NCBI GenBank assembly: GCA_008632985.1
Contig: QPGO01000030.1
Coordinates: 124,001 to 187,857, forward strand
From: Psammoneis japonica
Taxonomy: Eukaryota
DNA length: 63,857 nucleotides
Direction of reading: 5' to 3'
The notes beneath the pieces are model-generated. The model was not told the origin of the DNA, did no database searches, and saw nothing but the letters and a program-made list of their open reading frames with translations. Position numbers and translations under genes: made by a program. Below are positions 488 to 63,857 of this stretch, one piece after another (within the stretch, counting starts at the first letter, position 1; each line of letters opens with the position of its first letter).

Positions 488-1559
488 GGCTTTTGCGTAG
501 AGCACATTTAGAGTTCAGCAAGTGTTAGAGTGCTGTCTACTGTCTACAGCAGGTAAAAGCGGTTTACATTTTTTACAAAAAAGAGTTTTTTTGTTTGTCA
601 CTGTTTGCACTTTGCACCCACCGGCAGTGCGATTATTCCAGGTTGCACGCGCGCGCGCGTTGCACGTTGCACGCAGATCAAAGATCAAGGTGTCAACTGC
701 ATGTTGAAGTTGGTTGAAGGTGCCTTCACTTACGTAGGTACTCGAGCAATCAGATGTGGTGGGTGTCACGTGCTGCCGAACATAATTTTTAAGTCCGCCC
801 TTTTCAGTGGGCCCCATCCACATCTTCTGTCAGCCACAGTCGAATGTGCAAAGAACTTGACCAGCGGTCTGACATCTCCCACCCGTGCTGTCTGCTCTGA
901 TGCACATGTTGAACCAGCCCGCCACAGCAGCAGAAGTTCCACCAACAGCTGGAGCGGGCAGCTGGCTGCTCTGGTGCTGGGGGCTTCACTGAGAGTGCAA
1001 AAAAACTCTTTTGGCAACAAGCAAGCAGCTGGCTGGGGGCTCCCTCCTGGTGGCTCCACAAGAAAAGCAAGCTGACCAAGTCTTTCAGACAACACTTCAG
1101 TCTTTGTAAAGTTCTCTGTTTTGGCCTCCAGGCAGTGCCAAGTCCTTGATCCCCAAACACTTGAGATGGCAGAGCTGACCATCACAAATGCATTGTGTTT
1201 GACAGATGACAACTGGGTTTTCTTGCCTGCCACACAAAGTTTCAGACTTTGATTTCTGTCTCAGGCTGTTTGCCTCTTCCCCTTCCCCTCAGATCATGCT
1301 TTCTGACCACTTTGCTGTGCACAGCTTGCAGCAGGGTTGTCCAAAACTGCAGCAAGACTCTGTCATTCCACCCCACAGACATGGAAACTGCTGTTGGCAC
1401 CTTTTGTGGTGGATGGAGGCCATGATGTGATGCTCAGAAAAGTCAGTTCTCAAAGAGCACTGCTGCTGCCACGACAATGACAATGATCACCAGGATGAAA
1501 ACAAAAATGCACCATGCCTGCACTGTCCACTGTGCATGCATCTGAGCAGCACCCACAGC

Positions 1560-2780
1560 ACAAGGAATGCTGGTGACGCATGCTCTGAACATGCCTGCAT
1601 CTGTCCATTGTGTGCCACTGCCTCAAGAGTGCAGCTGCTCCAGCTTTCTGCTGGAGCATGCCGTGCCACAACAAATCAACAAAACTTTTGACTTTGAGAC
1701 ATCATGATGTTGTGTGCTTTTCATGTGCCAAAAGATCAATCACTTGCAAGGGGCTGGGGCATGAGCATCATCTGAGCAGTGTCATGGACAGACAGCTGTG
1801 GGATTGTGGCAGTTTGTGCTGCAGAGAGCAAAGTGGCAAAGCAGACAATCAAGCAGTGTGCGGGTTTGCCAAGCTGCTCTGCATTGTGAAAACAAAAAAA
1901 CTGCACCACTTGACAACCAACAACCAAAGAAAAAAAAACGAAAAGTGGATTGTCTTTGTGCCAGAACCAATTTGGACAAACATGGCACAAAACCTTTTGT
2001 CAAGAATCAGACATTTTTGATTGCACAAAAGAACAAAAGAAGTGGGGCTCCATTCTCATTTTGAACCTTGGACCCCTGATCTTTCTCATGGTTCTCACCA
2101 TTGATGTGATCAGCAGATGTCATGCAAATCTGTCAGAGCAGTGGATGTCATGCAAATCTGCCAGGTGGCAATGTTGCCTCAGGCAGAAAGCATGCTGCAA
2201 TTGTCTGCCATGGCTGCAGCATCTCCTGCATTGATGTTGATGGCAAGGATCTTGCCCCAGCCAAAGTTTTTGGACCCAGTGCACAACTCATTTTGACACT
2301 GAAAGTGGTTGGTGAAAAAAATGGCAGCAGCAGGATCTCAATGACTGTGGCCAAGCAGGTTGTCATGAGCCAAAGTGGGAGATCTCACAAGGTTGCCAGT
2401 TGGAGGGTTGTTCTGTGCATCCAAAAGAGGTTGGATGGCAGCAGGCATGGCAGCGGTGATGGCACTGGCAATCTGGGCAGCACCCAGCCACAATGTGATT
2501 TTGATGGGCATGATGTGCTCTGGTTTTTGCAACAATTTTGAACTGAGACAGGTTTCTGCAGCACAGAGGAAATGTGTGGGATTGTGGCTAAGTTCTTGAT
2601 TGCGCAAAAGAAGAAAAAAAGCAAGGCTGCATTCTCATTTTGAATGCTGGACATCTGATCTCATCAGTTGCTTGATCTGTGGTTTGTTGAGACATTGATG
2701 GCAGCATTTTGTCAGTCTTTGTGACTCATGAACTTGGTGGCACATGTTGACATGTGAATGTGCATGTGTTCTCACACTCC
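1560..2780 (+). repeat. Dispersed ~1 kb repeat, copy 1 (partly permuted relative to copy 2)
   Basis: 2140-2590 aligns to 5640-6130; 1790-2075 to 6120-6390; 1620-1715 to 6555-6635; 2590-2780 to 6325-6490. Confidence 0.85.
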
Positions 2781-2829
2781 CTCATGCAGAAAGGTCTGAG
2801 TTGTTGCCAACCCTCTGCAGACAGACAAT

Positions 2830-4250
2830 GGTGAATGAGCATTGATGAGTCCAGCATTTTGGTCAGGAAGCCAGCCTGTTGGAGCTTGGTGCCAATGGCT
2901 TCAATCAACAAACATCTGCTGGCGAGACTTCAGAGCAAAAGTGGTGGCAAATGTTGTTGACGTGATGCTTTCTGGGCCTCATCTTGGGCACCTTCACAAT
3001 CTTGACCACTGCCAACTTTTCCTCAAAAAGCTTGCAGAAAACTGTTGGCATGGCTGTTGCTGGACAACATGTTTTGTTGATTTCCTCCAACAAACACACA
3101 GATGCCTTCACATGCCAAGGGGCAGCTGACAAGGCTAAATGCTTGCTCTCACTGCTGCTGAGAGCAAGCTGGGTCATGTCTTGTCTGCAACATGGATGAC
3201 CAGCAGATGGGAGCTCCTCCACACTTGATGAAAAGGCACTGCAAGACTTTGCCATGTTGAGATCCTCAGCCACAATCAGTTTGTCCCAATTGCCACAGAA
3301 TTGGCACCAACAAAGTGCTCAAAGCTCTTTTCGTTAACAGGTGGGACCTGGGTGCAGCAGCCCTTGTTGTGTGTCTTCAACAGGTGTCATCTAAGGTGTT
3401 TGAGTGCAATGTCATGGGATTGCTTTGGACTGGCAGTGAATCAAGCCAGTTGGTGAGTTGTGCACAATGTCAGGGTGATTGAACTTCTCAAGGAAGTTGA
3501 CTTTGCCAACAACCAATCAGCAGTCAAAAATCACAGTCAAAAGGTTCGCCACCAAAATCAGGCCCAACACGCCTGGTTGAGAGAGCTGGAAGCACCCTGG
3601 TGGTCACACTCTTCTTTGGAGTGCTGTCTTTGTTGACAAGGTTGAGGTCCTTGAGGATGCTGTTAATCAGATGAGGCTGTGTTGAGTGATCCACATCAAA
3701 AATGGCTTGCATCAACTTGACAACCTTGTCAATGTTGTTGACAGACTCCTTGTTAAAGATCAGACAATCATCAGTGTAGACAGGATGGTGGACAGTTGCT
3801 CCCTGTGGAAGACACACTCATTGCACTCCAACAGTGAAAATCTAAGTTGTGCCCATCCTTCTCAGAGGCACTTGTGCCAGGTGTGCCCACTGTCACATTT
3901 GCCACAAATGTTTTTCTTTACACAGAGACAGTGCTTCTTGTGGTCTGTGCCAGGAAATGTTGCTCCCTCAGGTGACTCCATGAAAGTTGGATGTGTGATG
4001 TTTGCTTGTGGTGGGCGCACAAGGACAAAATCAACTTGTGGAGAATGCCAGCCATGTGTGTGCATTTGGCACTTGCACTTCATGGACCAAACTGTGAGCA
4101 AAATGATTTTGTTGTCAGGAACATCAGATTTCTCACACAAAGATCCCCCAGTGTGCTCTTGAGCAGTGTGATCTTGCATCTCCTTGACCATGGCTTCTTT
4201 GAACTGGGAAGCACCTGGTTGCCTCGTGGCTTTGTGTGCACATGCATGAC
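2830..4250 (-). mobile_element. Ty1/Copia (diatom CoDi-like) reverse transcriptase-RNase H remnant, pseudogenised
   Basis: Motifs in order across frameshifts: VWSMKCK, GWHSPQVDFVL..PQA, FMESPEG, KKNICG..SGHTWHKCL, VYTDDCLIF, QPHLINSIL, VVGKVNFLEK, THQLA*FTASPKQSH, ALSSSESKHLALS, VFCKLFE..KVPKMRPRKHHVNNICHHF. Confidence 0.9.
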
Positions 4251-5619
4251 AGCAGGTTGGCCAATGTTTTCATGGAATGCAAGATTGGACCATCAAGTTT
4301 TGCTTGAAAATCCTGCTCTGAGCCCAGCCATGTCTTGATCCAGTGCACTGAACTTGATTTTGTGTGACACAACACTGGCCTGTCTTTACAATTTGGATTT
4401 GTTCATGGGCTGTGTCAGCTGGACAGCATGTCCAGAGCATGTTGTTCACACTGGAGGTGGAGGCTCTGGATCAGGAGCACCCAATTTGGGTGGTGGCTCA
4501 GGGGTTTCAGATGCTCCCTCAGATGCTCCCTCATTCATTGCAGTTGCTGCATTTCTCTCCCTCATCTTTGGCTGTCTCCTCCAGAGCCACTGCCTCTTGA
4601 GGCATGTCAGCAGGGTCAGCCTCATGGCAAGTGTCAACCAATCACAGCTTGTGTGGTTTTGATGCATGCTTTCAGCTCAGTCTTTTCATCAAGTCATCCA
4701 GACACAAAAATTTTCTTGACAACAGTCTTTCATGTTGCACAGCACCCAAAGGGACTTGAAAGAAGGGGTGGAGTGAAAGACACCACCAACATTGCATTTC
4801 AACACCTGTCAAAAAAGAATTGGTGTCAAAGCCATGGTTGTTGCAGGTGGCCTGGTGATGGACAACAGCGGCAGATGAGCATCCAATGACAGGCTCATGG
4901 GTGGCATGGACCTTGACTGTCTTGTGCATGATGCATGTGCCACGTTTGCAATGAACACAGTGACAGTGACAAGTTGAGCCTCTTTTGCTTTGACTCTGCT
5001 GAGGCTTTCTGGCACAAGATTTGGGGCCAAAATCAAAGTGGCTGGAGCAACCAGGCTGAGTCAGACAAGGAGCACAATGGATCACATGCACTGCCAATCA
5101 AGTCAACTGCAATGCAAGTTGCTTTCATCAATGGCAACTCCAGACAGCATCATTGGAGCAAGCAAGGAGAATCACAAATGGCACAACAAGCAGTGTGGCA
5201 CAGATCAACTCCAAAGCTGACCACCACATTCATTCATTGTGAGCCTCATCAAGATGTCGTCAATGCTGAGAAATGCCATTGAAGCAGTTGGCACATTGGA
5301 AGTCAGCTTCAAAGAGTTGTGAGAGTGTTTCTGATCAGCTTTCACCAAGGCAACACTGCTCCAAAGCATTTGCCACAACTTGCTCCTTGGCACACCTGTC
5401 CAAGGAGCTGTGCAACTGACAGTTGTTCTGCATCTTGTGACAGACATCCAAGATGGGAAGTGCACTCCCTTGTGTTGGACAGACCAGCATGGACAGAGCA
5501 GAGAGATCCAATGATCTCTCTTTTGCTCAATTTTTTTCTTCTCCAGCGCATGATTGCCATCTTGTCCCAGATGTTGTCAGATCATCCGACACCAGCAGTC
5601 TACAATCTTGCGGTTCTGT

Positions 5620-6640
5620 GTGTTGATGATGTGGGCTGTGGATGTCACGCAAATCTGCTTGGTGTTGACACCGCCACAGGCAGAAAGCATGCTGTGATTG
5701 TCTGCCATGGCTGCAGCATCTCCTGCATTGATGTGTTGATGGCAAGGATCTTGCCCCAACCAAAGGTTTTGGACCCAGCGCACAACTCATTGAGGAGCAC
5801 ATGGATGTTGAGCTTCTTGACACTGAAAGTGATTGGTGGAGGCTCCTTGGCATGCGTGGAAATGACAGCACCACCATCTCAATGACTGTGGCCAAGCAGG
5901 TTGTCACAAGCCAAAGTGAGAGATGTCTCACAAGGTTGCCAGCTGGAGGGTTGTGGTGTGCATCCAAAAGAGGTTGGATGGCAGCAGGCATGACATTGGT
6001 GATGGCATCAGCAATCTGGACAGCACCCAGCCATGATGTCATTTTGATGGGCATGACACTGGGCTCTGGTTTTTGCAACAATTTTGAGCCGAGTCAGGTC
6101 TTGGCAGCACAGAGGAAGAGTGTGAGATTGTGGCAGTTTGAGCAGCAGAGAGAAACCCAGCAAAATGAACAACCAAGCAGTGTGCGGGTTTGCCAACCTC
6201 TGGATTGTGAGAACAAAAACTGTGACACTCAACACCCAACAAGCAAACAAAGAAAACAAGAAGTGACTCATCTTTGCACTGGAGCCAACACAGATGAACA
6301 TGGCACAAACACTTGTCAAGAATGAGAAGTTCTTGATTGCACAAAAGAAGAAAAGAGGCAAGGCTCCATTGTTGTTTTGAACCTTGGACATCTGACCTGA
6401 CCTGTGATTGGTTGAGATGTTGATGACAGTCTTTTGTCAGTCTTTGTGGCTCATGAACTTGATGTGGGAATGCAAACATTCTCACAGTGGTGCAGTGCAA
6501 GGAATGCCAGTGGCACATGCTCTGGACACACATGCTGCACCATCCATGACATGTTGTGTCAAGAGTGCAGCTGCATTTCCAGAGCATGCCACAACCAATC
6601 AACGGAATTTTTGACATTCAGACATCATGATGTCACTTTT
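5620..6640 (+). repeat. Dispersed ~1 kb repeat, copy 2
   Basis: Shares long near-identical strings with 1560-2780, e.g. GGCAGAAAGCATGCTG..ATTGTCTGCCATGGCTGCAGCATCTCCTGCATTGATG. Confidence 0.85.
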
Positions 6641-7365
6641 TGTTCCACAGCTGACTGGTGTCAAGTGGCTCCATTCCTCAAAATGCGCAACCCAGCAATG
6701 AGAGTTGTTTGTTTTTGTGTTGCAACAAGATGAGCGCCACCCACTCATTTTGAGCTCTTGTGATTCTCAATCGACAAACTGAGAAACATCCAACTTCTCT
6801 GTTTTGCAGCATGGCAAACAGCCAAGCAACAAGAGACTCACCCCATTTGCAACACTGCTCTGCTCCAAGTTGTTGCTGCATGAATGCCGTTGTGCCCCAT
6901 GTGGTGTGTTGTGGAGAGTGCTGATCTAACTCCACTCTGCAATGATGCGTGTGCCGGTTGATGTCGTTGACAATGCAGGTGGTGCGTGTTGATGCACAGC
7001 TGAAAGTTGTTTCAGAGTTCTTGTGCAACAACTTTGACTCCTCATCCAACACGAAGTTGCTGCACAAAAACTCTGAAATGCGGTCATTTTAGCACAAAGA
7101 AGAGAGCACAAATCTATTGCCGGAAGAAGTTGTGGGGCGTTGCCGGCAGTGTTAGAATAGAGGGCCATAACCGCGCGATTTCCGATTCAAAACAATGCAG
7201 ACGCTCTTTGATTGGTGGACCAAAATTTCAAAATGTGTGCCAAGTACAAGGTGTTTTCCGTCAGACCTGCGGAAGACATGAGTCTTAATCTTTGCTCAGC
7301 TCACCGCACTGTCGCACTTGTCTACGGGTGCGTACGTTCTGCGGAGGAAGATTTGGGAGTTAACC

Positions 7366-9447
7366 ATGGCGTCAGAAACCCGAATGTCGACACCAACTTC
7401 TGCACTTACGTTTGTGGAGGCCGAACACGGAAGACAACGAAGGAGACAGCGTGGCATTGATAAAAAAGATTGTCAAGCAGCTCTAAAGTACGCAACGAGA
7501 AAACCAACTCATCCAAGGCCCAACGTAGATCCTGCGGCAATGTATACCTACAAAGACATTGTTTACATAGTCAACGAAGTTACAAAGGAAGAGGTGACTT
7601 CCTACTCCATACCACTCAGGCTGGAGAAAGTATGAATAACTGAGTCAATGCATCGGATGCACGAAAAAGCCAAGGAACGGATTCAACAAGACCTTGATTG
7701 CTGGACTTCGAATACCGTCATTGTTGTGGACACTTCTGGATCGATGAAGGCTGCCGATGTCTGGGGGACACGAAATCGCCTTGGTGCCGTTTGGGTATCT
7801 ATTGCTCTCGATTTCATTGCGCACCGTCTCGAAAGTGGAACGGGAAGGTCTACAGACGTTGTTTCTATTGTCACTCTGGGTGTCCAGTCACAAATCGTTG
7901 TGCGGGAAACTCCCTGTACTTGGTCGCTTTACAACACGGTTGTAGAAATCTACAACGATTCTGTCGTCCTACCCTATGGACACGGAAACTTCATTCCCAG
8001 TCTTGACACTGCGGAAGCCTTGCTCACTCGGAACTCCAACGCAGCGTGTGCAATAGCACTAACGTTTCTCTCGGACGGAGCCCCATCAGATTCAGTCAGC
8101 ATGCCTGGCTACTCGAAAGAAGAGTGCATGGAAACGATAGCAGCCAGAGTCGGCGAACTTGCTCGGGTGTTTGGACGAAGGCTCACGTTCACGGCCATTG
8201 GCATCGGGGATCGTGAACAGTTCAGAATGCTTGAGCAAATGGTGGATACTGCAAAGGACTTCTTGGCAGTCGCCGAGCTTCAGCTTCCTTCAATGACGTC
8301 TTCTGCGCTCGGAGATGTTTTCACTTCAGTTGCTACGTCCATAGCGACCACGCAAACGGAGATGACGGACGTGGTGACGCTCAAGCAACGAAAAGTTCGT
8401 GATATTCCACGTGAATCCAAGAAAAAAGCCAACAAGGTGATTCGGCACATCACCGCAGACGACTTTTACATTTATCCGGCGAGCCGAGTAAAGCGAACGG
8501 TGTACCGTGAATGGTTCGAAGGGCGTCAGAAGAAGTCAGCTTACGATGAGACTCCGCTGCAGCACCCGAATGCCAAATTTGTTGCGATCGCAAAGTGTCC
8601 TTTTGGTGAAGGAGCTGAGCGATTCGCGTTTAGATTCTTTGAGCTTGCCGCCGATGCAAGAACAATTTTGGGTCAGCCACTGGTCGCGAAAGAGAGTAGA
8701 CTTTTACTCGAAGGTGGAGAGGACGAAGAGGCTCGCCAGAAGTTTGTTCGTACATTCTGTTCAACGCAACCACTGGCCCGCCGCCTAGCAAGCGAATTCA
8801 ATAAGAAAATGGACTCGTTGCGGCGTATTCATGTGGATACGCCGCGGATTAAGTTTCTTGATTGTTCCGTCTATCAGCTGGATGACAACAATCTTGGCAA
8901 GCAAAGTGTCTTGGTAGAAGAGAAGCTAGATGATTGTCAGTGGACCAAGTGGAACGGAAACAACGGCTATGTCATTGGACAGGAACGCCCAGCAACAGTC
9001 AAGGAACAAGAGGTAAGAGCCACAGTGGATGATACAACAAATCCCGATGTCATCGAGGAAGGTAGCGAAGAGGAGGAAGAATCTGATGATGATGAGACTT
9101 CGGTCTCGAACAAATTTACTCCCGTCTTATTCTCACCATCCGAAGTAGCACAAGCATTTTCGCATTTTTCATATGGTGCCAGTGGCAGGAAGCGACTCGT
9201 TTGTGATTTACAGGGGGTCATGGATAAGACGTCAAACGTGCTGTTGTTTTCAGACCCTGTTATACACTACTACAACCACAACCGCGCACATCGTAGGTTT
9301 GTTCATGGGAGAACTGATCGTGGCGCAAAAGGAGTGCGTCTATTCTTTGAAACACACAACCAGGGACAACATGGACATCTCTGCAGACTGATGACAAGAG
9401 GATTTCGACAGGTCAAGCAAGCACAGCCGGAGTCTCAAAATGGATAA
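7366..9447 (+). CDS. vWA domain + alpha-kinase (eEF2K/MHCK-like) protein, interrupted by an in-frame TGA at 7633-7635
   Basis: ORFs 7318-7635 and 7648-9447 are in the same frame; first ATG is 7366. MIDAS motif VVDTSGSM and FLSDG; alpha-kinase motifs PFGEGAERFAF, VAKES, WTKWNGNNG, QAFSHFSY, LVCDLQG, DPVIH, GRTDRG, FFETH. Confidence 0.85.
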
Positions 9448-9664
9448 TCATGGGATGGAAGAACGAGGAATCAATTGTGCTTGGTCCTGGGTTGTCCCGT
9501 CCGTGCTGAGTGCTGAGACGACGCCGTTGCACGGAGTTACTCAACAGAATGAGGCATAAATGCACACAAATAGCACAGTGTTGTTGCTACATCTGGATTG
9601 CATCATCCGTCCGTGCTACACTGATCCTATCTTCAATCCATTCTCAATCTCTTATCACACGTTT

Positions 9665-11191
9665 TTACACTATGGCCATGGGTGTTGGACTTCTTTCCGG
9701 TGACTCAACAGTAGACTGAAGTCGTTGCGTCAAGGTCTTTACACTCAGTGCAATGTCTTGCCAGTCTCGCCATATGGAATGTCTTTGTTTCTTCTGTAAT
9801 ATCTCAATAATATCGTAGTCTTCGCTGACAGATGTCAAGTATTCATCAGATGTCATTATGAGATCCACGAGGCCAAGATTCTTTGCCTGCACCGCCAACC
9901 AGGCCTCGCCAGTAGCAATTTCTTCGATTGAATCCTTAAGTTTGGGCCTCGCAAACGCAATGTGATCCTTGAAAGCGACGTGAATATCATCGAGTTCCTC
10001 CTTTAGCTTGTTCTTGCCTTCCTCCGTGACTTCTCCAATGATGTCGATAGTGCGCTTGTGTTTGCCTGCCGTCATGAGATACGCATCAATCTTTTTGTCG
10101 TTTAGGAAACGTTGGAAATTTGGTATCTGCGTCACAACACCAATGCTACCAACGATTGCAAAAGGAGCCGCACAAATGGTGTTCGCCACGCTTGCCATCA
10201 TGTAACCACCACTAGCGGCAACAGTGTCAACGCAAACGACGAGACGAATGCCGGCTTTGCGAATTCTGACAAGCTGCGAAGCTGCCAGTCCATACTGTGA
10301 CACGGCACCGCCGGGAGAAGTCATGACGACTACACACTGATCACCCTTCTTTCCTAGATTCACAACAATGGAAACCTGCTTGCGTAAGAGCTCTAGATCC
10401 GACACCACCATGTCGCCATCAAAGACGATTAAATATACCACTGGACGGTACTTCTGTCGAATAGTCTTGACTGGAATGCCCGCCTCTAAGTCTTTCTTAA
10501 CATGGTCCTCCAACTCTTTTCGTTTCTTCTTTTCCTCTTCCTTTCGTTCCTTAGCTTCCTTCTTTGCAGCCTCCTTGACTTGAGGAATATGCCCCACAAC
10601 ATCCAAACGAGTACGAGCCAAACTATCTTGTGCCTTGAGACAATCCTTTTCGTATCGATCATTCAGTCTCCGAAAGCGGACCTTAACTTCCTTGTAGTTG
10701 GGATCGCCAGAGCTTCCGTCATCGTCGCTTCCAAACAAGTGAGCTTCTGCAACCGTCCCAACGCAGAAAATACAACAGGCACAAACACAGGAGGCCGCCG
10801 CAAGTACCAACAAGATCGCTCCCACCAATACTTGAGACGCGGAATCCTTGTATTGTTCATACGATATAAGAATACCTCCAGCAATCACGAGACATACAGT
10901 GAGACAACAGCACGTTGCTCCCAAGCACGCGGCACCGCCGCCGACACCTCTGGCATCGTCGCCCGTCGACGCAATGTATCCCTCTCCTCCACTGCCATAA
11001 CGTTTGACTGGATGATACTTGAATGAATCAGCCTCTGAGCTAGACTCTCGATACAGCCCATAGTCCCCCGCCTCCTTTTGTTCGTCGTCCGGGACGTCAA
11101 CACTCTGCACATTGGAAACGAGGGATTCTTTTTCTTCTTTTGACGAAGAGGCAAAATCGTAGCCAAAATCGTCTGGCTGGAAACGACTCAT
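9665..11191 (-). CDS. sohB: Peptidase S49 (SohB/SppA-like) with N-terminal Cys-rich transmembrane extension
   Basis: SPGGAVSQYGLAASQL, VDTVAASGGYMMA, APFAIVGSIGV, TAGKHKRT, IATGEAW; 508 aa intronless ORF. Confidence 0.85.
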   Translation of the reverse strand: MSRFQPDDFGYDFASSSKEEKESLVSNVQSVDVPDDEQKEAGDYGLYRESSSEADSFKYHPVKRYGSGGEGYIASTGDDARGVGGGAACLGATCCCLTVCLVIAGGILISYEQYKDSASQVLVGAILLVLAAASCVCACCIFCVGTVAEAHLFGSDDDGSSGDPNYKEVKVRFRRLNDRYEKDCLKAQDSLARTRLDVVGHIPQVKEAAKKEAKERKEEEKKKRKELEDHVKKDLEAGIPVKTIRQKYRPVVYLIVFDGDMVVSDLELLRKQVSIVVNLGKKGDQCVVVMTSPGGAVSQYGLAASQLVRIRKAGIRLVVCVDTVAASGGYMMASVANTICAAPFAIVGSIGVVTQIPNFQRFLNDKKIDAYLMTAGKHKRTIDIIGEVTEEGKNKLKEELDDIHVAFKDHIAFARPKLKDSIEEIATGEAWLAVQAKNLGLVDLIMTSDEYLTSVSEDYDIIEILQKKQRHSIWRDWQDIALSVKTLTQRLQSTVESPERSPTPMAIV

Positions 11192-12789
11192 TCTGTGTCA
11201 CTTCAATGCGAAAGAAGACACTACGGTAGCGTAAGAAAAGGTGAAGAAAGGCCTCCTTGCTCCTTGTGCTCCTCCTCTCCTCACTTTGGCTTCGTTTCTC
11301 TTCTCTGCTCCTTCACCGTTCGATCGCCAATCGCCAACACGAAAATCATCAGCAACAAACAAAAAAAGAAAAAAGAGAGAAAAAAATGAAAATCGAACGC
11401 ATGCGAGAGAGAGCGAGTGCGCGAGCCCGCGCGCAAGATCGAGCAGAAGTGACAACACAAGCGCCTAGCCTCGAAAATCATGGACAGCTTGCCGAGTTTC
11501 ATTTTTGGCATGCCAGTAGAAACATCCAATGTGTTTCTACATGTGACAGCACGAACATCTTGAACTCTGCGAGCTCCAACACCAGAACAACACGAAGCAT
11601 GAAGAGTTTGCGAGAGAGCGAATGGCGTTGCTGACACACTGTGAGCGCAAAGCAAAAATGCCAAAACATTGTTGTTGCACAACATGTGGGTGGTTGGTCT
11701 GTCAACAGACAAAATGAATTTCCCCTTCAAAGCTGGTCAGAAGCTTCAACAGACTGCACAGCTGTTTGTGTGTGTTGTTGGGTGGCAACAGACAGAGGGG
11801 CATGCGTGGCCCACTTTGGGTCATTCTCAAATGACAACCACAGCCAACTCCTCCACCAACATTGCTGATGTCTTCTCTGTCGAATTGCTGCTCAATTCAG
11901 CCAATGCTCTCTGCAGCAGAAGAGCAAATGATGAGACTTCCAGCTTGTCCACCAAGATGACAATGCCGCCGACTCGACAACTCTCCAGCACTTTTGTTTC
12001 AGTCACAGATTTGTCATGTGACTGGTCAATGTCCACAACCGCAAATCTTTTCGGAAGTGTTGCTTGTTTGCACCCACAAAGCAGAGCCCCCCAAGCTGCT
12101 GCTGCATGGAGAAAAGGATGACAAAGCAGCCAGTCACAGTTCCTGGATGAGCAACCTCTTTTCAGAACAAGCCCTCCTCCTTGGGATCAAGCTCAGTTCA
12201 CTGTCATGCCACCAATTTTGGCTCTGCTGAGTCATCCATGCTGCCGGTTGTGTTTGCCACAGTGCTGCTGAAGTGACTTCCAATGAGGCCAACATGTCAT
12301 TTGCAGTTCTTGCATCTGCACAAACAGATTCAGGCAAGCCCTCCTTGGCCTCCAGACACGTTCCAGATGCAGGTGGGAATCCGTGTGATGTTGGGCCCGC
12401 AGAATTCTGCATGCAAGCTCTGCAGCAAATTCATTGGGTGATGAATGTGCCAATGATTGCCAACAGAAAATGAGGCAATTTTGTGAATGCACAAACTCGT
12501 CCATGATTGATGCGCATCAATTTTTACTTGGCCGGGTGCATTCTTCAGACATTGAAGAATGCACACCTGGTGCACTCATGTTCACACAATTTTGTCAAAC
12601 AAAATGTCTGGGGTTTTGCAAAACAGCGAGTCTGGAACAGGTTTTTGGAAGATCACATGTGGAAATGTGCGAAACATGTGACGGATGACAACAAACAATT
12701 TTGTGTCACACATCAGCACTGCGAGCTCCCACCTGGGGCTGGAGCGTGTCTCCAGCTGACTCCACCGTCATGCTGCCACATTGAGAACT

Positions 12790-13315
12790 GCTGAGTCTTC
12801 CATGATGCATGCTGATGTCACAATGCTGCTGCCAAAGACACTTCAAACAGGGTCAGTGCATCGTTGCAATTCCAATGCCGACCATTGCACATCATGTTGA
12901 TGGGTCCAACGGCATCTTTTCATGGCGAAACAAAACCCCTGTGACTCGGTTACGACCGGCCATTGCTGGGTCTTCCACGCCACATGCTGAAATCACAATG
13001 CCACTGAAGACACTTCAAACAGGGTCAGCGCATCATTGCAACTCCAATGCCGACCATTGCACATCATGTTGATGGGTCCAACGGCGTTTTTTCATGGCAA
13101 AACAAAACCCCTGCACAACTCGGTCACAACCGGCCATTGCTGAGTCTTCCATGCCACATGCCAATGTCACAATGCCACCAAAGACACTTCAAACAGGGTC
13201 AGTGCATCATCACAATTCCAACACCGACCATTGTGCATCATGTTGATGGGTCCAACGTCTCGCTTTTTCATGGCGAAACAAAACCCCTGCAACTTGGTCC
13301 TCACGACCGGCCATT
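12790..13315 (+). repeat. Tandem repeat, 3 copies of ~175 bp
   Basis: Units start at ~12791, ~12966 and ~13140 (CTGRGTCTTCCA..AAGACACTTCAAACAGGGTCAG..CATCATGTTGATGGGTCCAACG..AACAAAACCCCTG..ACCGGCCATT). Confidence 0.95.
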
Positions 13316-13602
13316 TTCTTGAACCAATTGTCAGCAATGTTCTGAGACTCCATGGCAAGGGAGATGTGATGTGGCAAGGCAGTGTCTGAGTGCAAAAAAC
13401 GCCGTCGCATCATCATCATTGTGAGTGCGGCATGCACAGGCACAGGTCGCCACACAAATTTGAATGAGCTGATGGCTCCAACTGCCATTTCAGTGCAAAC
13501 GCAGGTAGAAACTTGCATGTGCACATCTGCACAACTTTGCACTGGCATGCCAAAAATAATGAACTCGGCAAGCTGTCATGCTGCATGTGCTGCAGACAAA
13601 AG

Positions 13603-13803
13603 AGGACCGAAAAGGGAAAAACAGTGGACCGAAAAATTTCGGTCCATTTTCGTCGCGCGCACGCGCGAATGGACCGAAAAGTCGGCAGAAGTGGACCGAA
13701 AAATTTCGGTCCATTTTCGTCGCGCGCACACGCGAATGGACCGAAAAAAGAACCGAAAAAAGAAAACAAGAGGGAAAGGAGTGGACCGAAAAATTTCGGT
13801 CCA
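13603..13803. repeat. Cluster of imperfect palindromes GTGGACCGAAAAATTTCGGTCCA, probable transposon subterminal repeats
   Basis: Full copies at 13624, 13691 and 13781; half-sites GGACCGAAAA at ~13604, ~13671 and ~13738. Confidence 0.8.
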
Positions 13804-13974
13804 TCACAGTTGGAAGTTGAAAGTACCTTGTCCCAGACACCAGTTACTTGTCTTGTGTTGCGGTTCTTCTTTGTTGTTTCAAGTAGTGTGGCGTGGGGGT
13901 TAGTTGTGTTTGAACACTTTTCACCTTGATGAATTGAAACGACGAAGCCACGATTGCGCAGTTTTGGGTGGAGG

Positions 13975-14448
13975 ATGTTGTCCGATAAGGCAAAGTTGGG
14001 TCTTTTGGCGGCTTGCTTGATTGGTTGTCTTAGCACCCTCTTTACCTCGTCCAGTTTCTTAATGGAGCACAGGGGCCTCAAGGTTCTTATCGCTCCATTA
14101 CAAACTCATTGTAAATCTCCAAGAATACAAGTACGAAAGTGCTTGGGAGGAAACGATAGCGCCGGCAAAACGCCATGCACCACTCTAGTATCTCAGGTAG
14201 AACAATGTGAAAAATTCGTCACGCAAGCCTATCGTCAAATTAACATGGGTGGATGCCCTCGCGAGCTACAGGCTGTAACAGTGTGTGAAGTGGAGTGGTG
14301 CGATGGCAACAGCGCTGAAGCAATGAAATCGTGTCAAGAGGAATGCAAGCAAGTATCCGAGGCCCTCACAAAGTGCATCAACCGACATGTTCAAGCCTAT
14401 TTCCGTCGGCACAATTTGCAGCAAGACGGAACCCTGCGCCAACAATGA
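13975..14448 (+). CDS. Small protein with N-terminal hydrophobic segment and four CX9C motifs
   Basis: ATG 13975; C-KSPRIQVRK-C, C-TTLVSQVEQ-C, C-PRELQAVTV-C, C-KQVSEALTK-C; normal dinucleotide composition. Confidence 0.75.
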   Translation: MLSDKAKLGLLAACLIGCLSTLFTSSSFLMEHRGLKVLIAPLQTHCKSPRIQVRKCLGGNDSAGKTPCTTLVSQVEQCEKFVTQAYRQINMGGCPRELQAVTVCEVEWCDGNSAEAMKSCQEECKQVSEALTKCINRHVQAYFRRHNLQQDGTLRQQ

Positions 14449-14495
14449 GTCAAGCAGCGTGAGTATCCATTGCTATGTTGAACCTCTTCCTTGTA

Positions 14496-45115: not shown

Positions 45116-45419
45116 CTTCACCGGTCCTTAACAAACTTCGGGTTTTGGTGGGAGAAGCAACACACATAACGTGCCGCCACTCCTCGTTGTGATTGATTGC
45201 AATGGGCAATGGCCTCGTGTCCCGTGTGTTTGTCCCGCGCAATCAGCGTGCGTTTTGGCCTTCGTCGACGGCGAGGCGCATCCTCTAAAGAATGCTGTAG
45301 TTTTCTACGAGCCGCGGTACAAAAGACGCCGGCCGGAGCGAGAGGAACGAATAGTAAAAAAGCATGAAAGACTGAATGTTCAAAATAATAAAAAAAGATA
45401 GAAGGAGGGGCACTTGCCC

Positions 45420-48898: not shown

Positions 48899-49548
48899 TG
48901 TCACTGCCAAAACGCTTGTCTTCAGCGTTTGCCGTGCCGACAGAACAGAAAATGTGAAAAGTGAGCCGTCATTGAGAAGTTCGAAAAAAAGCAAAAAGTT
49001 CGGGCGGAGATGACGACATCACACAGCCACGTCACGTCATAACGTTCGTGATTGAAACTCTCACGACTCGATTGCAAACAAATTTTCCCGGGTTTTTGTA
49101 AATCCGCAGTTCTCAAGTTGATAGACCACCTCGCCCATTTTGAAGGATAAGCTTATCGGTAGGCTGCTGTAAGTCATCTCACGTTTGCTTCTTGAATAAA
49201 CAACTGGGAATTGTTTCAGGGGTTGAAGGTCTCTGGTCCAGCGACCGTCGATGAAGATCTGAATGACTATTAGCATTGTGATGCGAAACAAAGCGAATGC
49301 GTCTGAGTTGAAAGAAGATACCAACAATGATCTCAAGCAAGTCTCACGGTTGCTTACAGCAGTGTCAGTCGAGCTCAACGAGAAAATGAGGCCTGTGAGT
49401 CATTATCCAGACGTCCCTAGCTAGTAGTCTGTAGTTCCCACGTTCCAACGAGATACATCTACTGCCTTTTTGTAGTTTTTTCTATTAGTTTTGTCTATAA
49501 ATTGAAATTGTAAAAAATTAGCGACAGCAAGATACGAGGTCGTAAAAA

Positions 49549-53279: not shown

Positions 53280-56200
53280 TCCCGCCAATGATCAAACAGA
53301 CAGGCTTCTTTTGCTTTTCCCAAAAGACAACATGCGCACCGCCATTGTCATGTTTCTTGACCCATTCTATCTTCAGGTCTTCTGACAGTGCTGCTGGTCC
53401 ATGGTGGTGTTGTGAGGGGTGTGTGCTGCCGCTTTAATTGTCATCATAATGACATGAGAACTTCTCACTGTGTGCTGCAGCCCAACCCACAATGAGTTGG
53501 GGCCAGTTCACTGAGGTGCTGTGGTGCAAAACATGCAGCAGTCTGCACAATTCTGGTGCAAAATCAACATCAATTGTGAGAGAAATCTGCCACATGGCCA
53601 ACGTTGTTGGATGACACCTGACTGCTGACTCTGCCACTTCCATGCAAATCATCTGCAACCTTGGCAACTGTGCTGTGACAGCCCATCATCTGATGCATGC
53701 TTGCCTTCATTGGCTGTGCATTTTTTGCACAGTTTGAAGCATTGACAGCCCCAAAAACAGCTGTGTTTTCCATGCCAGATGAAGCGACACATCTGGGCAT
53801 CACATTTTTCAACTGCACTTTCTTCATGACTTCCACAAAGTTTGAGACTCTCTGTCTGTCCTCTGTGTTGTTTTGGCACGTGTTGTTGCTGGTCATCATG
53901 TTTGAAGAGCTCTGCTGTCATGCAAAGGAGCCATCCTTTCTTCCATGTAAAAAGTGCAGTTGCAGAAGATCGCTCTGCTGGATCACAAAGCATGACACCT
54001 GCTCTTTGTGCATTTCATTTGCTGGGCTGGCTGGTGTGCTCAGCTCTTTTTTTTTTTTGCAGTGCCCCACAAAACGTGTGGGGGCTGCAAAGATTCCAGT
54101 GCACTTTGCTCTCTGACTTGGTGGTTCGTTCTGGGGAAGATGCACAAAAAAGTTGCACATGAATCTGCAAATGCATGATCCAATGCACAACTCAGCCACA
54201 CATTATCTGCCTGCACACGCATGCACACCAGAGATGAAAGAGCAGCAACAAAGACTCAGATGATGGATGATTTTCTCACTCAAAAATGGGTGCAAACTCT
54301 GCTCTTTAGTCTCAAACATGTGGGCACAGATTTTGAAATGAGAGAGTGCAGGTTTTCTGTGACAATCAAAGTAGAGTGAGCTTTGCAACTCCTCTCAGCA
54401 TGGAGTTGCACACAGGAGCAGTTGTTGCACACAAACAAGAAGAGCGCATTGTGCACACAGTTTGTGCCATCTGCTGCAGGACCAAAGAGAAGGTTGTGCT
54501 GTGATGCGCCATTCTTGTGAGTGCATTTTCTTGACAAATGGTGCAAAGAATGTTGACTGCATGATGTGAGAAATTTGAAGAAACTTGTGCTGCCATTTTG
54601 GAGGCTTTCAAACATGTTTCAGAGAAGTGCCAGCCAAAGTTAGGAACTTTGTGAGCAAGAGCCAGCATTGTGTGTGCTTTTTGGCACAACAGCACATGAC
54701 AAATGAAAGCACTGAGACTCATTTTCAAAAAGTGCGCACAAAACAGCTTTTTCACTCCATGCACAGCATCAGCCAGGTTGCCCCACTTCTCTTCAGCAGT
54801 GTCAGCCAAAACTGCTGCTCCAAAGCTGCGTCAAACAATTTGGTGCTGAGCAGCAAGCTCCAACTTGGCTGCAACAATTTTTGCACAAAGCTGGTCTCCA
54901 ATGAATGGCAAGAACCAATGCAAGAAAGCACAAAGCACTGCAGCCAAAAGTGCTCCATGTGTCCCCATTTGACAGCAGCAATTTCTGTTCTGACAAGCTT
55001 GTGCTGGGGGCACAGTTTCAACTTTTGTTTGCAATTTTGTCTCAACCAAGATGCAGAGGAAAGTGGCAAAGGAACAGTTGGAAGAATTTTTGCCAAATGG
55101 AGACACAGGGACATTTGCTGGTGTTTGAAATGTCACTCAGTGTGTGCATCCAAGCGCACATGCCAGCACATTTGAAACCTTGTTTCAAGCTCAAACACAT
55201 TGCCTTGGCAGCACTCCACAAGAGAAAAAAATGAGAAAGAGCATGGCTTGATCCAGGCCACTCAAGTTGACAAGAGCACCTTCTCTGTCAAAGAGCCAGG
55301 TTTTGCAACCACAGAAAGTCTTTTCCCACACTCAGAGTGGCAGGAAAGAAGAAATGACAACTCTGTGTGTTGTGGCATTTTTGTGCTGACTGAGGCGGCA
55401 CCCACTTTTTACTCATTGTGTTTTGAAGGGATGTGCTGCAAGAGAGTGTGCTGAAAAAAAACTGCTCTGGAGCTGGCTCCTGGGGCCATGCAGAAAGGGC
55501 GTGTTGGCATGCAGCTTGAAGCTGTTGTGTGTGCAAGGCTCCTGGGAGAGTGAGAAGAAAAAGAAACACTGTCAGAGCTTTGTGGGGGCTGGGCCTGTTC
55601 CAACCCCAGGTGAAATGCTTTTGGCACACTCCCAAACAAAGAGCATCTTTCTCAAACTCCTCTTCCAAAATGCAGGTTTTCAAATGAAACAGTGTGCAGT
55701 TGCGTGGAGCACGGCATTTTGCATGTGACAAAATGTCTTGCTTTGTTTGCAAACATGTCGAAATTGAAACCCCAGATTTAAAAAGATGTGATTTGCCAAG
55801 TGTCCCAAGCCACACCATTTTGTGCCACTTGGAGCTTTGGAAAGCTGCCAAAGACACTGCAGCCCATGTCTGGATGTGGAGAATGAGGTGCTCTGCACAA
55901 TTTCCTTCTTGAAGCCAAAAGCTCAGTCATGTGCTTCACCCTCATTGCTCAAACTCAGACCCATCTCTGGTGTGCTCAAAGTTGTGTTGTGAAGAGAGAA
56001 GAGAGGTGCAGCAAGCTCTGAAGACAAGATGTTTGGGGAGCACAAAGGTGCTCTCATGCTTTCAAACTGACTTTTCTGCACAGTCCAGTTGCCAAAATGC
56101 AGGAGCCCCCCCAGTGTTGCTGTCTGCAAAATGACAAGGAACACAGAGCACACATCTTTGTCAACAATGCTTGTTGGCCACATTGTGACATCTTCTCTGG

Positions 56201-57480
56201 CTTGGCTCTGGGCCCTTTTGGCCAACCTTTTCTTTTGTTTGATCATGTGCCAGCAAGAAGCCAAGAGATGAGCCCTTGAGTTGAAAAAAAATGATGGATG
56301 ACTGCTTTTTGTCTCATGTCCTTTGACCAAAGCTGGCCTTTTCTGCCCATCTTCTGTTTTTCTGTCTCATCTCTTGTGAGCCATGCTCAAGATGCAATTT
56401 TTTGCACAGTGACCCCCCTCCACCCCCCACCCCCAGAGGACATTTGTGTGTCACAAGCACCAGGAATGTGACACAAAAATCTTAAAAAATCCATGACACA
56501 CCAAACAGTGCAGTCCAAGGAATGACAGTGCCAACAGTGTGGTTCATTGAAAACAGCGCTCAGAAGACTGAGAGCGCATGTGCCACGGCGCACAAGATGT
56601 CTGTGCGAGTGTCAAAATGCAGAGCATTGGTGGGCAAGAAGTTGACATTTTGTGGCTGCTGTGCACTTGCAAAAGAGTTGTGTGGCATCTGCGCTGTTGA
56701 CACTCAAGTCTTGTCCAGAAAGTTGTTGAACTTTGTTTTGCACTCAACAAAGCCAAGGGAAAGCTGCCATGTTCAACAGCTGCGGGCAGTGCCAGATTGC
56801 AGCAAAACACCCAAATCAAAGAAAAACATGATCAGAGGCAGAGCTGGCACTGAGGATTGCTCGCTGCAGCGACAAAGGCACAGAGCTTGTTTGCTCCTTG
56901 CTTGGCATTTTGTCAGTTGACTCTCAACATTTTTTGCCAGACAAGGGCTCACCTCAGTGTTTTGTCAGGAGCAGAGGTCTTCAAAACAGTGTGTCAAGCA
57001 TTGAGGACAGATGCACAGAAAACACACTGCACGGTTCTGGAACATTTTTCTGAAACTCGAGGCAAAAAATGATGCCGCTTGTTTCTCAGCAAGCTGCGCT
57101 TGTTTTTTTTTCTGTCATTTTAAAAGGTGCTGAAAATGGAGAAGGTGCTTGTTTGTGGGGCTTTTTGTGAGACATGGCACTTCCAAAGGTGCTGTGTGTC
57201 AATGTCTTTTGTGCGACGGTGCATGCCTGGCTTTCTCTTGCTTGCCTCTCTGCCCCCCCCTCTCCCTTCAAAAACTTTGTGACAGCAGCAGCCGCTTGTT
57301 CCAGCACGAGAATGGAAGGACTGATTTGAACACCTTTTCCCCCCATGCTCAACCATGCATCTAGCCAGCAGTGTCCAAAACAGTGTGTGCCACGAAAGCA
57401 GCCCAGCGGCTGCAGCAGGTCTGGTTGCCACATGGTGCTTGCACACAACACATGCACAGAGCGGGAGAGGAGGAGTCGTT
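53280..57480. repeat. Decayed repeat block 6 (probable transposon-derived, class unresolved)
   Basis: TA/CG-depleted over ~4.2 kb; only a weak Ulp1-like 'ND..CGIFVL' string near 55350-55390. Confidence 0.7.
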
Positions 57481-57858
57481 CGAGCGCGTCGAAAAATGCT
57501 CATGGACGACAACAGACGATGTATGCACCCTCGGGGCGGGCGGGCGAGCGCGAGAATGGGCGATTGAAAACAACATGATTCCAAAAAGCCTGTTGATCAA
57601 TATGGTACCGTAACCACAACATAAATACGAAAAGGAATTTTTGATTTCTTTTGATGGCTTCAACTTGATCGGCACGCAAGGTGCGGAAGCAGCACCAAAA
57701 TTTGAATGGCACATGGCACAACAAGGGTAATACTTCGGCGTCATAGACAAGCCGTCCCTTGAACCTAGTTGTTACTCGCGGCACCACAAGAGTAGTCCTT
57801 ACCACTCCTGTAGTTGAATTGTCGCTTGCAGACACGCAGCACAAAAGATTCAAGGAAA

Positions 57859-61526: not shown

Positions 61527-61821
61527 GTATTTTGAACTTGTCGCACACTTCTTTATTATCACGACGTCGACTTAGGCAAAATCGATGAGGGGTGGCTATT
61601 ACACGTAAATTCCGGATGAATCCTTCAGCAACGATGATGGTCGGTTGTTCTGTACGTAGTGGCTTGTAACGTGACGCCTGTACTGCATCCGTCGGCTACG
61701 TGCAAGCCGTGTGATGTACAGACCGTGGGCTAGACAGCTCCGATCTCAGCCATCCCTTGCACTCTCACAACAACCATCCTCACCCTTTTGGCACAGGACA
61801 CCTCATCGGATATCCCCTACC

Positions 61822-63857
61822 ATGGCGTCTGACGATGACGCCCTGTACGACTTGTGCTGTGCTGATGGCACGCAACATGGAATCCCGCCCGGAACGAACC
61901 CTGGAATGACGCCATCGATTTTAGCCGCAACCTGCGGCCAACACGGACAGAGAACCAATGCTGCTCACACGTCGGCTCGAGAACGTGCGTGGGAAGACAG
62001 GAGGAAACCCATGATTAACGGACGGCTTAATCTGCAACCCAAGAAATGGATGGACAGGACCCACATGCTGCCCCCGGCACCAGGACCGAACGATCCCCGA
62101 GAGGTCAAGAGCGCCGTCCTAGACCACTCATTGCGCACCATTCGTGAAGGGGAAGGTGCTTGGCAAGCCAAGTGTGAACTGATGACCACTCATCTGGGCA
62201 CACCGATGGTGATGACGCAAGCAAAACTTAGGATCGCCTCGTTCGACCTGTTGACACACCCCACCTGTGCATGCACGTTTGCAGGTGCAGTTGACTCAAA
62301 CGTCAGAAACATCAACGTGCCAGCTGTCGACGGAGCAGCATTCCGGAACACAGCACGTCACGCAGTGTACGACGTAACCATCAACCCCGGCAACGCGGAC
62401 CCAGTGCACGCACTTCGCACGCCAGTCCCAGCAGAGACGAGGCGCGTGTACGCGCGCTTGCCACTGATCGGAGGACAACTCCACCCGAACATCAACGGAG
62501 CAACGATCCGATTCTTTGGACACGTGCACCAAACCATGCTTGCCGCAAACCAACCCATCGAGCTCAGCCTCAATGCGGAAACCTGCCTCAGCGAAGAGGC
62601 CTTCCAAACATGGAAAAAAAGCATCTGCTGCAAGACGCTCTACGAGCACATAGCCCAACTCATGCCGTCCGCCTTCGTCGGAGATGGGGCAATCAAGTCC
62701 GCCGCAAATCGATTGCAAGAATGCACCATGGTCACACAAGACCCAGTGACAGGAACCAAGAAAGGCAGATCCACCCAAGAGCATTTTGAGGCATTCTCCA
62801 GCATCGCAGCAGAGCTCGACACGAACCACCCATGCCCAGTCAACCTCGCATGCACATGCTGCTACTCCTTGCCAATGAAATTGCAGGAAAAACTCCACAC
62901 CAAGGGTCACAGCCCCCCTGAGGTGTGCAACGGGAATGAGGAACAACTGGCAAATCTCAACACAGCCAAGCAAAGGGCAACGGAGTGTGAACTCGAACTC
63001 AAGATAGAACTCGACACTGTCAAGAATGCGGCAAACAGACGAGGACAAAACCAGTCAGTGGTTATGATGGCTAACCCCAACATCGGAACTCACCAATTCC
63101 CAACGGAAACTCCAGCAAGCATTCCCGGATGCGCAGCCATGCCCAACCCTGCCGCCATTCCTGGATGCGCAGCCACCCCCAACAGCGCACACCCTGGAAC
63201 ACAATCGACCACCCCACAAACGGCACAGCCGACACCAGGAACATTGGCCCACAGTTCAGCAGTGCCAATGGCGACGTTCGGCCCAACGCAACTGTCCACA
63301 TTGCTCTCGGATGCAGCACAAAGAGCCCTCACACAAGATGTCAATGTCACCGACGACACCCCATGTGTCATGTTCCTGTCCACAGCCGAGCAAGCCATGC
63401 GCCAGGCCAGCGGCATGACAGCTCCATGCAAATGTTGGGGCTGCGATGGCATGCACAAATGGGCTGACTGTGACAAACGGAACGACCCCAACGCAAAAGC
63501 AAAAGCAATGGTCAAGATGCAAGAGTTGCGAGAACAATGGCGCGAGAAACGCAGGGCGAGGAACTCCTCACACCAACCAGCGTTGAAACGCACCATGTTG
63601 AGCGAACCAGAGGTGACGGAAAACTGGGAGAGGCTTGGATTCCCCAACAGCAAGGTGGCAAAACAGGTGCACACATTAGCTGCCCCAGAAACATCCAACA
63701 AGAGGCGCAAGCAGATCTGCAAGACCATGTCCACCTTGCTCGCCCAGAAAGACGAGGACAGCCAGATCCACGGAACCCCGGATGTCACACTGTTCACGAC
63801 AATTCGAGCAATGCAAGGCACCATCCCAAACGCACCACTCGACATGTCAGCGGATCT
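61822..63857 (+). mobile_element. Retrotransposon gag-like ORF (open to the right window edge) with zinc knuckle
   Basis: Not in the ORF track. My translation from ATG 61822 has no stop to the edge (~678 codons), with CWGCDGMHKWADC (CX2CX3HX4C) at ~63433-63471 and a Pro/Ala/Thr-rich segment before it. The element's 5' end is probably at ~61650-61800. Confidence 0.7.

Follow-up and report, generated by a model that had tools for sequence, protein, structure and literature searches.

A probable footprint of TpA-specific hypermutation in inserted elements of the diatom Psammoneis japonica

We examined a 63,857-nt stretch of contig QPGO01000030.1 from the diatom Psammoneis japonica (the window), in which seven blocks of DNA are almost devoid of the dinucleotide TA. 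The composition of these blocks is probably due to a TpA-specific A:T-to-G:C hypermutation of inserted selfish DNA, which would act on DNA copies and on both strands, together with ordinary CpG decay. The original prediction, made from the letters of the window, had proposed a strand-symmetric A:T-to-G:C process at TpA in repeated or silenced DNA, and that core inference was supported by the relatives of one of the elements, by the TpA context of the changes and by contigs from an individual sequencing run (X1). Judged from the sequence, this appears to be the first diatom case found, and the most saturated, of a kind described once before in an unrelated alga, Bigelowiella natans.

Composition of the blocks and reality of the letters

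The seven blocks were called in this one window with our own thresholds on sliding-window dinucleotide observed/expected ratios (o/e), and their edges were refined from single TA and CG positions. Counts below are observed/expected.

Block 1, 791-6926 (6,136 bp): TA 12/236, CG 37/347; CG-poor core at about 956-6602, while 6603-6926 is TA-free with CG present
Block 2, 11539-13823: TA 4/84, CG 78/134; 11647-12909 lacks both TA and CG, and 12910-13800 shows loss of TA only
Block 3, 16408-24774 (8,367 bp, the largest): TA 18/281, CG 40/540
Block 4, 29060-30329 (short): TA 4/39, CG 44/90
Block 5, 45400-47524 (2,125 bp): TA 6/77, CG 18/126
Block 6, 53448-57600 (4,153 bp): TA 11/164, CG 51/228
Block 7, 62121-63857 (reaches the window end): TA 11/44, CG 101/128

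All seven TpA-poor clusters fall within 64 kb. Together they cover 26,073 bp and contain 66 TAs compared with about 925 expected at the flank o/e of 0.57, and the deficit of each block has a Poisson P between 4e-9 and 2e-94. The longest TA-free run is 1,482 bp in the blocks, whereas the 1,464 gaps elsewhere average 26 bp and reach at most 234 bp. TG and CA are roughly twice as frequent in the blocks, and the GC content stays near 0.48-0.52 in sliding windows. Block edges are sharp, within tens of bases, and the genes that flank the blocks have a TA o/e of 0.4-0.7 and normal CG. The window counts therefore bear out the earlier description of blocks nearly devoid of TA and rich in TG and CA beside ordinary neighbors.

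Four deep cores (18,904 bp) were compared with the flanks (36,699 bp), and the four pyrimidine-purine (YpR) dinucleotides alone shift. TA o/e is 0.04 in the cores and 0.57 in the flanks, a depletion of about 14-fold; CG falls to 0.08 from 0.98, and TG and CA rise to 1.93 each from 1.17 and 1.16, respectively. AA/TT is steady (1.12/1.17 in the cores, 1.17/1.15 in the flanks), AT is near-constant (0.83 vs. 0.91), and the GC content is 0.493 in the cores vs. 0.476. The two strands of the cores are balanced, with 2,257 TG and 2,301 CA. The loss of TA and the gain of TG and CA noted in the original prediction stand, but most blocks have lost CG too, and a larger share of the TG/CA excess comes from the loss of CG than from that of TA. 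A simulation in which 93% of TA and 92% of CG were converted randomly to TG or CA reproduces the core dinucleotide spectrum. The root-mean-square deviation from the cores, 0.39 before conversion, fell to 0.09 when flank DNA was used and to 0.13 with intact relatives of the element in block 1 (described below), at a GC content of 0.46-0.49 compared with the 0.493 observed.

Read data came from three sequencing runs of a single sample in a single study, and word depth was taken at k = 31, where the single-copy depth of run X1 is about 64. Contigs from X1 are identical to the window, with 0 differences, over 1-2229, 2420-3736, 5178-5726, 16469-18827 and 18840-20000. Their word depth is 62-72, the same as in flanking genes, and they extend out of unique flanking sequence into block 1. 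Matches of this depth and exactness lead us to infer that X1 consists of accurate short reads. The original prediction had asked whether raw reads might show TA at the altered sites; the X1 contigs carry the same block letters and do not restore TA, which excludes base-calling error at modified bases.

Word depth also bears on the repeat status of the blocks. At k = 31, blocks 1 and 3 are mostly single-copy, and part of block 2 is a high-copy family whose word depth reaches hundreds of times the single-copy level. At 12220 and 12275, where the window has TG, other genomic copies read TA at about 90% of their depth.

Direction of the change, its context and its independence from CpG loss

The direction of change was read from block 1, the only block with a recognizable transposon protein. 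Its read-through (2801-5632 on the minus strand) gave 10 matches in a full HMMER search among 1.84 billion representatives, including the intact Copia-type polyproteins P0124 (1,348 aa) and P0125 (531 aa), in which RVT_2 was recognized with E-values of 5e-27 and 1e-31, respectively. With tblastn, these two proteins located the remnant; direct repeats lie to either side of it:

2807-4236, minus strand: Copia-type (RVT_2) reverse transcriptase/RNase H remnant with stops and frameshifts
1554-2739, plus strand: left direct-repeat set of block 1, resembling a long terminal repeat (LTR); not colinear with the right set
5633-6636, plus strand: right direct-repeat set of block 1, counterpart of 1554-2739

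On this homology, block 1 is a hypermutated LTR-retrotransposon (Copia/Ty1) remnant, and block 1 is the one block for which the element type is proven.

A family alignment was built with 43 loci on metagenome contigs that were found by alignment of relatives, and a column was taken as conserved when at least 70% of the sequences agreed. Block 1 covers nine of the 14 conserved Tyr columns and 11 conserved Arg columns. At the nine Tyr columns the remnant has one Tyr, two Cys, two His, one Arg (CGC, with both bases changed), two Phe and one Val; eight of the 11 Arg columns have become Cys, His, Gln or Trp. That Cys and His are both found in one element is in line with hits on the two strands. Judged by this alignment, the direction of the change is from TA to TG or CA. 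The change also depends on context. A-to-G was seen at three of nine TpA sites vs. two of 44 ApA, CpA or GpA sites (second positions of Asn, Lys, Asp, Glu, His and Gln codons), and T-to-C at three of nine TpA sites vs. one of 23 first positions of Phe, Ser, Cys and Trp codons. At the codon level, five of the nine Tyr codons are now TGY, CAY or CGC compared with 3/67 changes at non-TpA sites (p = 3.3e-4). An elevated A-to-G rate at TpA over the other NpA contexts had been anticipated and was found. The claim that conserved transposon tyrosines now read as Cys or His held for block 1, but the other blocks gave no recognizable transposon protein. The few TAs left in the blocks suggest that ATA/TAT is the preferred target context, as ATAN contexts account for 6/63 residual TAs compared with 46% in the flanks, and CTAA and TTAA are enriched.

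The composition of block 1 is not a family trait. TA o/e ranges from 0.28 to 0.94 in the 43 relative loci, contrary to the possibility, raised at the outset, that relatives would be equally TA-poor. Many relatives show strong CpG decay and a lowered GC content (0.38-0.44) with ordinary TA and intact tyrosines; in L005, L015, L025 and L032, for example, CG o/e is 0-0.07, TA o/e is 0.7-0.8 and GC is 0.38-0.44. Four loci with CpG decay (L033, L022, L026 and L040) have kept only two to six of 7-12 conserved arginines but four to 10 of 6-13 tyrosines. CpG decay alone, therefore, does not cause the loss of tyrosine.

A few relatives show the converse. In L021, Tyr has become Cys or His at seven of nine columns, Arg is kept at eight of nine, and there is no stop. 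L006, which is identical over 1,492 bp to L014 from another metagenome, has changed six of 14 tyrosines and kept all 16 arginines in an open frame of 1,603 codons with 0.9% Tyr. Both L006/L014 and L021 have intact CG and open frames. In L036, three of seven tyrosines are changed and three of four arginines kept, with most CG lost (CG o/e 0.47 overall) and six stops in the tblastn alignments. TA o/e is 0.07-0.35 inside these elements (L006/L014, L021 and L036) and 0.4-0.7 beside those in L006/L014 and L021. Pooled over L021, L006 and L036, Tyr is changed at 16/30 columns vs. 3/185 for the comparison sites (p = 2e-13). Cys or His occupies 27 of 477 Tyr cells across all 43 loci, and 22 of the 27 lie in L006/L014, L021, L036 and L011. 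From these alignments, the same process seems to act in the other organisms from which L006/L014, L021 and L036 derive.

The window itself separates the two losses as well. TA is lost and CG kept in four segments: 12910-13800 (CG o/e 0.90), 29060-29790 (TA o/e 0.05, CG o/e 0.65), 56557-57500 (CG o/e 0.43) and 62120-63857 (TA o/e 0.16, CG o/e 0.77). Loss of TA is thus independent of loss of CG, and apparently precedes it.

Repeated copies give a view of the process on individual DNA molecules. Identity between repeats within blocks is 74-85% by letter and rises to 88-96% when purines and pyrimidines are merged (77-80% and 88-95%, respectively, for the left and right repeats of block 1), and copies therefore differ mainly by transitions. 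Block 2 holds a tandem repeat whose copies differ mainly at YpR sites:

12789-13291, plus strand: tandem repeat of 174 bp, 2.9 copies, in block 2

The three copies share 46 YpR columns, of which 27 are invariant TG or CA and three invariant CG; eight mix TG and CA without CG, seven mix CG with one product, and one reads TA/CA/CA. Only about a third of the CG copies have decayed in the CG columns, so that the eight resolved mixed columns far exceed the expectation from CpG decay. This is suggestive of a second, fully resolved ancestor at the mixed columns, which would be TA, in copies that share ancestry. Across 10 repeat pairs, TG/CA double differences number 61 (of 455 YpR sites) vs. 31 for all single-step YpR differences, and TA takes part in just two of the latter. 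Two sibling proteins from a protein library (P0122 and P0123, 72% identity) show a similar pattern. The Tyr of the YTDD motif is His in one and Cys in the other, and the FDY column is likewise His and Cys in the two siblings; the window has Cys there.

The effect on reading frames follows from codon logic. Over all TA-containing contexts, conversion of TA to TG or CA never makes TAA, TAG or TGA and only removes them, whereas CpG decay makes stops via CGA to TGA. Since no stops are made, open reading frames (ORFs) that have been hit stay open, as in block 7:

61711-63855, plus strand: P0121, a 715-codon open frame that contains a CCHC zinc-knuckle, block 7

An open frame in such DNA is no evidence of activity. 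The translation of P0121 contains 0.8% Tyr, 3.4% Cys and 3.6% His, compared with 2.2-4.7% Tyr and 1.0-2.2% Cys in intact relatives, and over 62051-63857 its frame has 0 stops where each of the five other frames has six to 25. P0121 may be gag-like, a reading that rests on the CCHC motif.

We propose that two separable, strand-symmetric transition processes act at self-complementary YpR dinucleotides in what would be dead transposable elements and repeats of the pennate diatom. One would convert TpA to TpG or CpA; it would be near-saturating, be limited to inserted DNA and hit single DNA copies after their synthesis, so that the footprint would not be an inherited family composition. It would erase Tyr codons and leave reading frames open. 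The other would be ordinary decay of methylated CpG to TpG or CpA. As to chemistry, the first is most likely the work of an enzyme that deaminates adenine to inosine (then read as G) at TpAs of either strand; its targets would be silenced or foreign DNA, and its candidate role would be defense. The footprint is probably the long-term result of TpA hypermutation of the Bigelowiella natans type.

Known systems and rival explanations

In mutation-accumulation lines of B. natans, two integrated viral regions received 231 of the 302 mutations, according to a preprint (Mettrop et al. 2026, bioRxiv 10.64898/2026.01.13.699255). The rate there was about 6e-7 per site per generation, about 1000 times background; 230 of the 231 were A>G or T>C, all on TpA according to the authors, and hypermutation occurred in 11 of the 15 lines. 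Of the two targets, the larger is transcriptionally silent and present as a single copy. The preprint also reports 124 clusters of windows poor in TpA and rich in CpA and TpG in the B. natans genome, an enrichment of TpA-poor coding sequences for reverse transcriptase and DDE domains, and a proposed ADAT2-like adenosine deaminase; diatoms, stramenopiles and CpG are not mentioned in the available text (bioRxiv 10.64898/2026.01.13.699255). The window shares with Bigelowiella the conversion of TpA to TpG or CpA on both strands, the sharply bounded foreign insertions, the TpA depletion with a gain of CpA and TpG, and targets that contain reverse transcriptase. It differs in that the host is a diatom (a stramenopile) rather than a chlorarachniophyte, and in that LTR-retrotransposon and repeat remnants are hit here, where giant-virus and virophage insertions are hit there. 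TA o/e is 0.04 here, compared with a Rho of 0.45 reported for the region of nucleocytoplasmic large DNA virus origin there. CpG decay is superposed here, and our footprint is read from sequence where rates were measured there. On every feature that sequence alone can address, the window matches the Bigelowiella kind. Our literature searches found no description of TpA loss in diatom transposons. The original prediction, which knew of no such description in diatoms, thus stood in the literature searched, but for eukaryotes as a whole the Bigelowiella preprint does provide one.

Fungal repeat-induced point mutation (RIP), as in Neurospora, resembles the process in the window in producing context-specific, near-saturating transitions in transposons and repeats with a dinucleotide footprint. 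However, RIP changes C to T at CpA and creates TpA and stops, whereas here TpA is destroyed, A:T becomes G:C and no stops are made. In place of the TpA excess and stops of RIP, TpA in the cores is about 14-fold depleted, with CpA and TpG enriched. A cytosine-methyltransferase-like enzyme is, moreover, incapable of A:T-to-G:C chemistry. RIP also needs duplicated sequence, and the B. natans target is reported as single-copy; by analogy with that target, the trigger may be foreignness or silencing rather than repetition. The label "reverse RIP" given in the original prediction may therefore be the wrong analogy. Methylation of diatom transposons is known, and diatoms can carry a RID-related DNMT4 of no known function, with no RIP-like footprint noted in the part of that source available (PMC9998398). 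Decay of methylated CpG explains the loss of CG (o/e 0.08) and roughly 60% of the TG/CA gain, as estimated from o/e ratios, but such decay spares TpA and lowers GC, whereas here TA is lost and GC is 0.49. ADAR and APOBEC enzymes hypermutate retroelements by deamination, ADAR with a preference for a 5' U, and their mark is strand-asymmetric, with A>G or G>A on the sense strand of the element. In the window, by contrast, the two strands are affected to the same extent, and tandem copies of DNA have diverged in place.

Several explanations other than TpA-specific hypermutation of DNA were weighed. The signature could be a passive by-product of replication or repair in silent chromatin, through an error-prone polymerase or biased mismatch repair, with no dedicated enzyme and no defense function; this seems unlikely to us, although the limitation of the signature to silent-looking insertions and its partial overlap with CpG loss, which implies methylation, are both in its favor. 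Polymerase eta makes WA-to-WG errors in somatic hypermutation, with TpA as a hotspot, and its A-to-G errors at WA motifs are what such a by-product might look like. That signature should also hit ApA, however, and it was rejected on the constancy of AA/TT in the cores. A by-product of methylated chromatin is also hard to reconcile with the four segments that lose TA without CG, and the removal of about 93% of TA with modest change elsewhere would need a very large ratio of rates. In B. natans, furthermore, the process was active in 11 of 15 lines and was read by the authors as regulated. Somewhat less probable still is that the elements were already TA-poor when they inserted, through RNA-level editing or selection against UpA over cycles of retrotransposition, and then underwent CpG decay. 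The sharp block edges and the long open frames of block 7 (715 codons) and L006 (1,603) would be expected in that case, and the 61/455 TG/CA discordances could have come from decay if CG made up about 23%, the fraction seen in block 7. But open frames are uninformative on function where stops cannot arise, and tyrosines of the catalytic core, conserved in at least 70% of relatives, have been lost. P0122 and P0123 resolve identical Tyr columns differently, tandem copies in place differ at TG/CA columns without CG, and RNA editing of a sense transcript would not give equal hits on both strands. The B. natans preprint also describes the same change arising de novo in resident DNA.

Two further explanations are far less credible. 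GC-biased gene conversion among repeats, followed by CpG decay that funnels YpR sites to TG and CA, would qualitatively be expected to turn TA into TG or CA with net GC neutrality. We consider it very improbable and rejected it for lack of context specificity: AT, AA and TT are hardly changed, the GC content is not raised (0.493 vs. 0.476), and most of blocks 1 and 3 is single-copy by word depth. An artefact of sequencing, base calling or polishing at modified bases has even less to recommend it, although blocks of such a kind could be modified DNA. Miscalling was rejected on the agreement with X1, whose contigs at flank-like depth give 0 differences over several kb; the coding remnant is truly decayed, with frameshifts and CGA-type stops, and similar elements occur in unrelated metagenome assemblies.

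Some observations nevertheless count against hypermutation of DNA at TpA as we propose it. The direction of change rests on one recognizable gene with nine Tyr columns, together with environmental relatives. The 61 TG/CA discordances among repeat pairs cannot separate TA from CG ancestry, and a TA-free, CG-rich ancestor gives a similar number. The open ORFs of block 7 and L006 could be read as still-functional lineages that avoid TA. The two-process simulation leaves residuals at GC (1.28 vs. 1.06 modeled) and GA/TC (0.93/0.90 vs. 1.09/1.07), with a small one also at AG/CT. Most copies of the block-2 family retain TA at 12220 and 12275, so that not all copies have been hit. Repeat status by word depth covers blocks 1-3, and X1 may be the data from which the assembly was built or polished and thus not a fully independent replicate.

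A broader reading, which we put forward tentatively and regard as somewhat more doubtful than not, is that Rhizaria and stramenopiles share a dedicated DNA base-conversion system that carries out saturating TpA editing on both strands of silenced foreign DNA, and that in diatoms it acts independently of, and ahead of, cytosine methylation. If so, the system would be either a naturally occurring adenine deaminase of DNA or an enzyme that converts thymine to cytosine. Being unable to make stop codons, it would disable elements by erasing Tyr codons and signals that contain TA, for example TATA boxes and AATAAA. A change from A:T to G:C at one dinucleotide, in foreign DNA only, opposes the universal GC-to-AT bias and would imply a class of enzymes that has yet to be isolated in nature and that turns A into G, or T into C, in DNA. 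The window would represent the end state of the process, in an ecologically dominant lineage and on retrotransposons, with partial versions elsewhere in metagenomic contigs, and the preprint would show the process in action in a chlorarachniophyte, from a different major lineage. The responsible gene should be findable by comparing the proteomes of algae with and without the footprint. For annotation, the consequence would be that transposons hit in this way are invisible to Pfam and to k-mer repeat finders, and that their frames are predicted as orphan, Cys/His-rich, Tyr-poor proteins.

Other searches and features of the window

Searches for further elements in the blocks were largely negative. 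Pfam found no transposon family at cut-off among the block ORFs (61, then 103 at E <= 0.5, of 225 stop-to-stop pieces of at least 70 aa; the first 61 scanned were about 110 aa or longer), and the read-through 2801-5299 on the minus strand gave no Pfam match, leaving the Copia copy of the window undetected by Pfam. P0121 has no homolog among 7,999 candidates (393-1,252 aa) and no Pfam family. When 43 long ORFs from the metagenome loci were compared with the window by tblastn, a transposon protein was found in block 1 only, with three weak matches elsewhere, and the same loci had no nucleotide match in the window. A transition-tolerant search for terminal repeats yielded no convincing candidate in blocks 5 and 6 and no more than about 200 bp in block 3, and tRNA and Rfam scans of the window found nothing. 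In block 3, 21217-21873 on the plus strand has a weak match to the hAT C-terminal dimerization domain (E 0.064; 0.16 in read-through). The read-through 19501-21900 on the plus strand had 0 PDB matches at E <= 10 and 0 homologs among 4,349 candidates, and block 3 is not established as a DNA transposon. If the hAT match is true, the footprint would also lie on a DNA transposon with no RNA stage.

The left edge of block 3 coincides with a repeat-induced break between X1 contigs at 16468. In block 1, the window differs from a single-copy X1 contig at 5132-5133 (TG vs. CA) and at 6687 (CG vs. CA), two of about four differences in about 15 kb of single-copy overlap; either allelic variation or recent events at YpR sites could account for them. 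Within block 2, some 100 bp (12389-12491) have a summed X1 word depth that climbs to about 145,000, well beyond the remainder of that block, and form an ultra-abundant short repeat or satellite core; where the window has TG at 12389-12390, nearly all other copies have CA. A second run, X2 (recorded as "DNA?"), matches only genic parts of 1-20000 (1-574, 8337-8525, 9640-11344 and 13816-16244) and has one 36-bp match in the blocks. X2 resembles transcript-derived data, and the blocks would be silent if it is RNA.

The genes between the blocks encode an alpha-kinase, an S49 peptidase, an ankyrin/mTERF protein, a PAS-cyclase, Nramp, SulP and asparagine synthase. One flanking gene has its best named relatives, at 65% identity, in the raphid pennate diatoms Cylindrotheca closterium and Nitzschia inconspicua. 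Three long ORFs with normal TA and CG match no Pfam family and are presumably lineage-specific host genes (30842-32302, 43235-45121 and 47945-48994; 486, 628 and 349 aa, respectively). A dense TA-rich, microsatellite-like stretch (30386-30495) adjoins the TA-free block 4. Upstream of an ABC-class ATPase gene, the region 39500-40500 has a GC content of 0.40-0.42 and a CG o/e of up to 1.47, and it contains 30-nt inverted repeats at 40306-40335 and 40377-40406.

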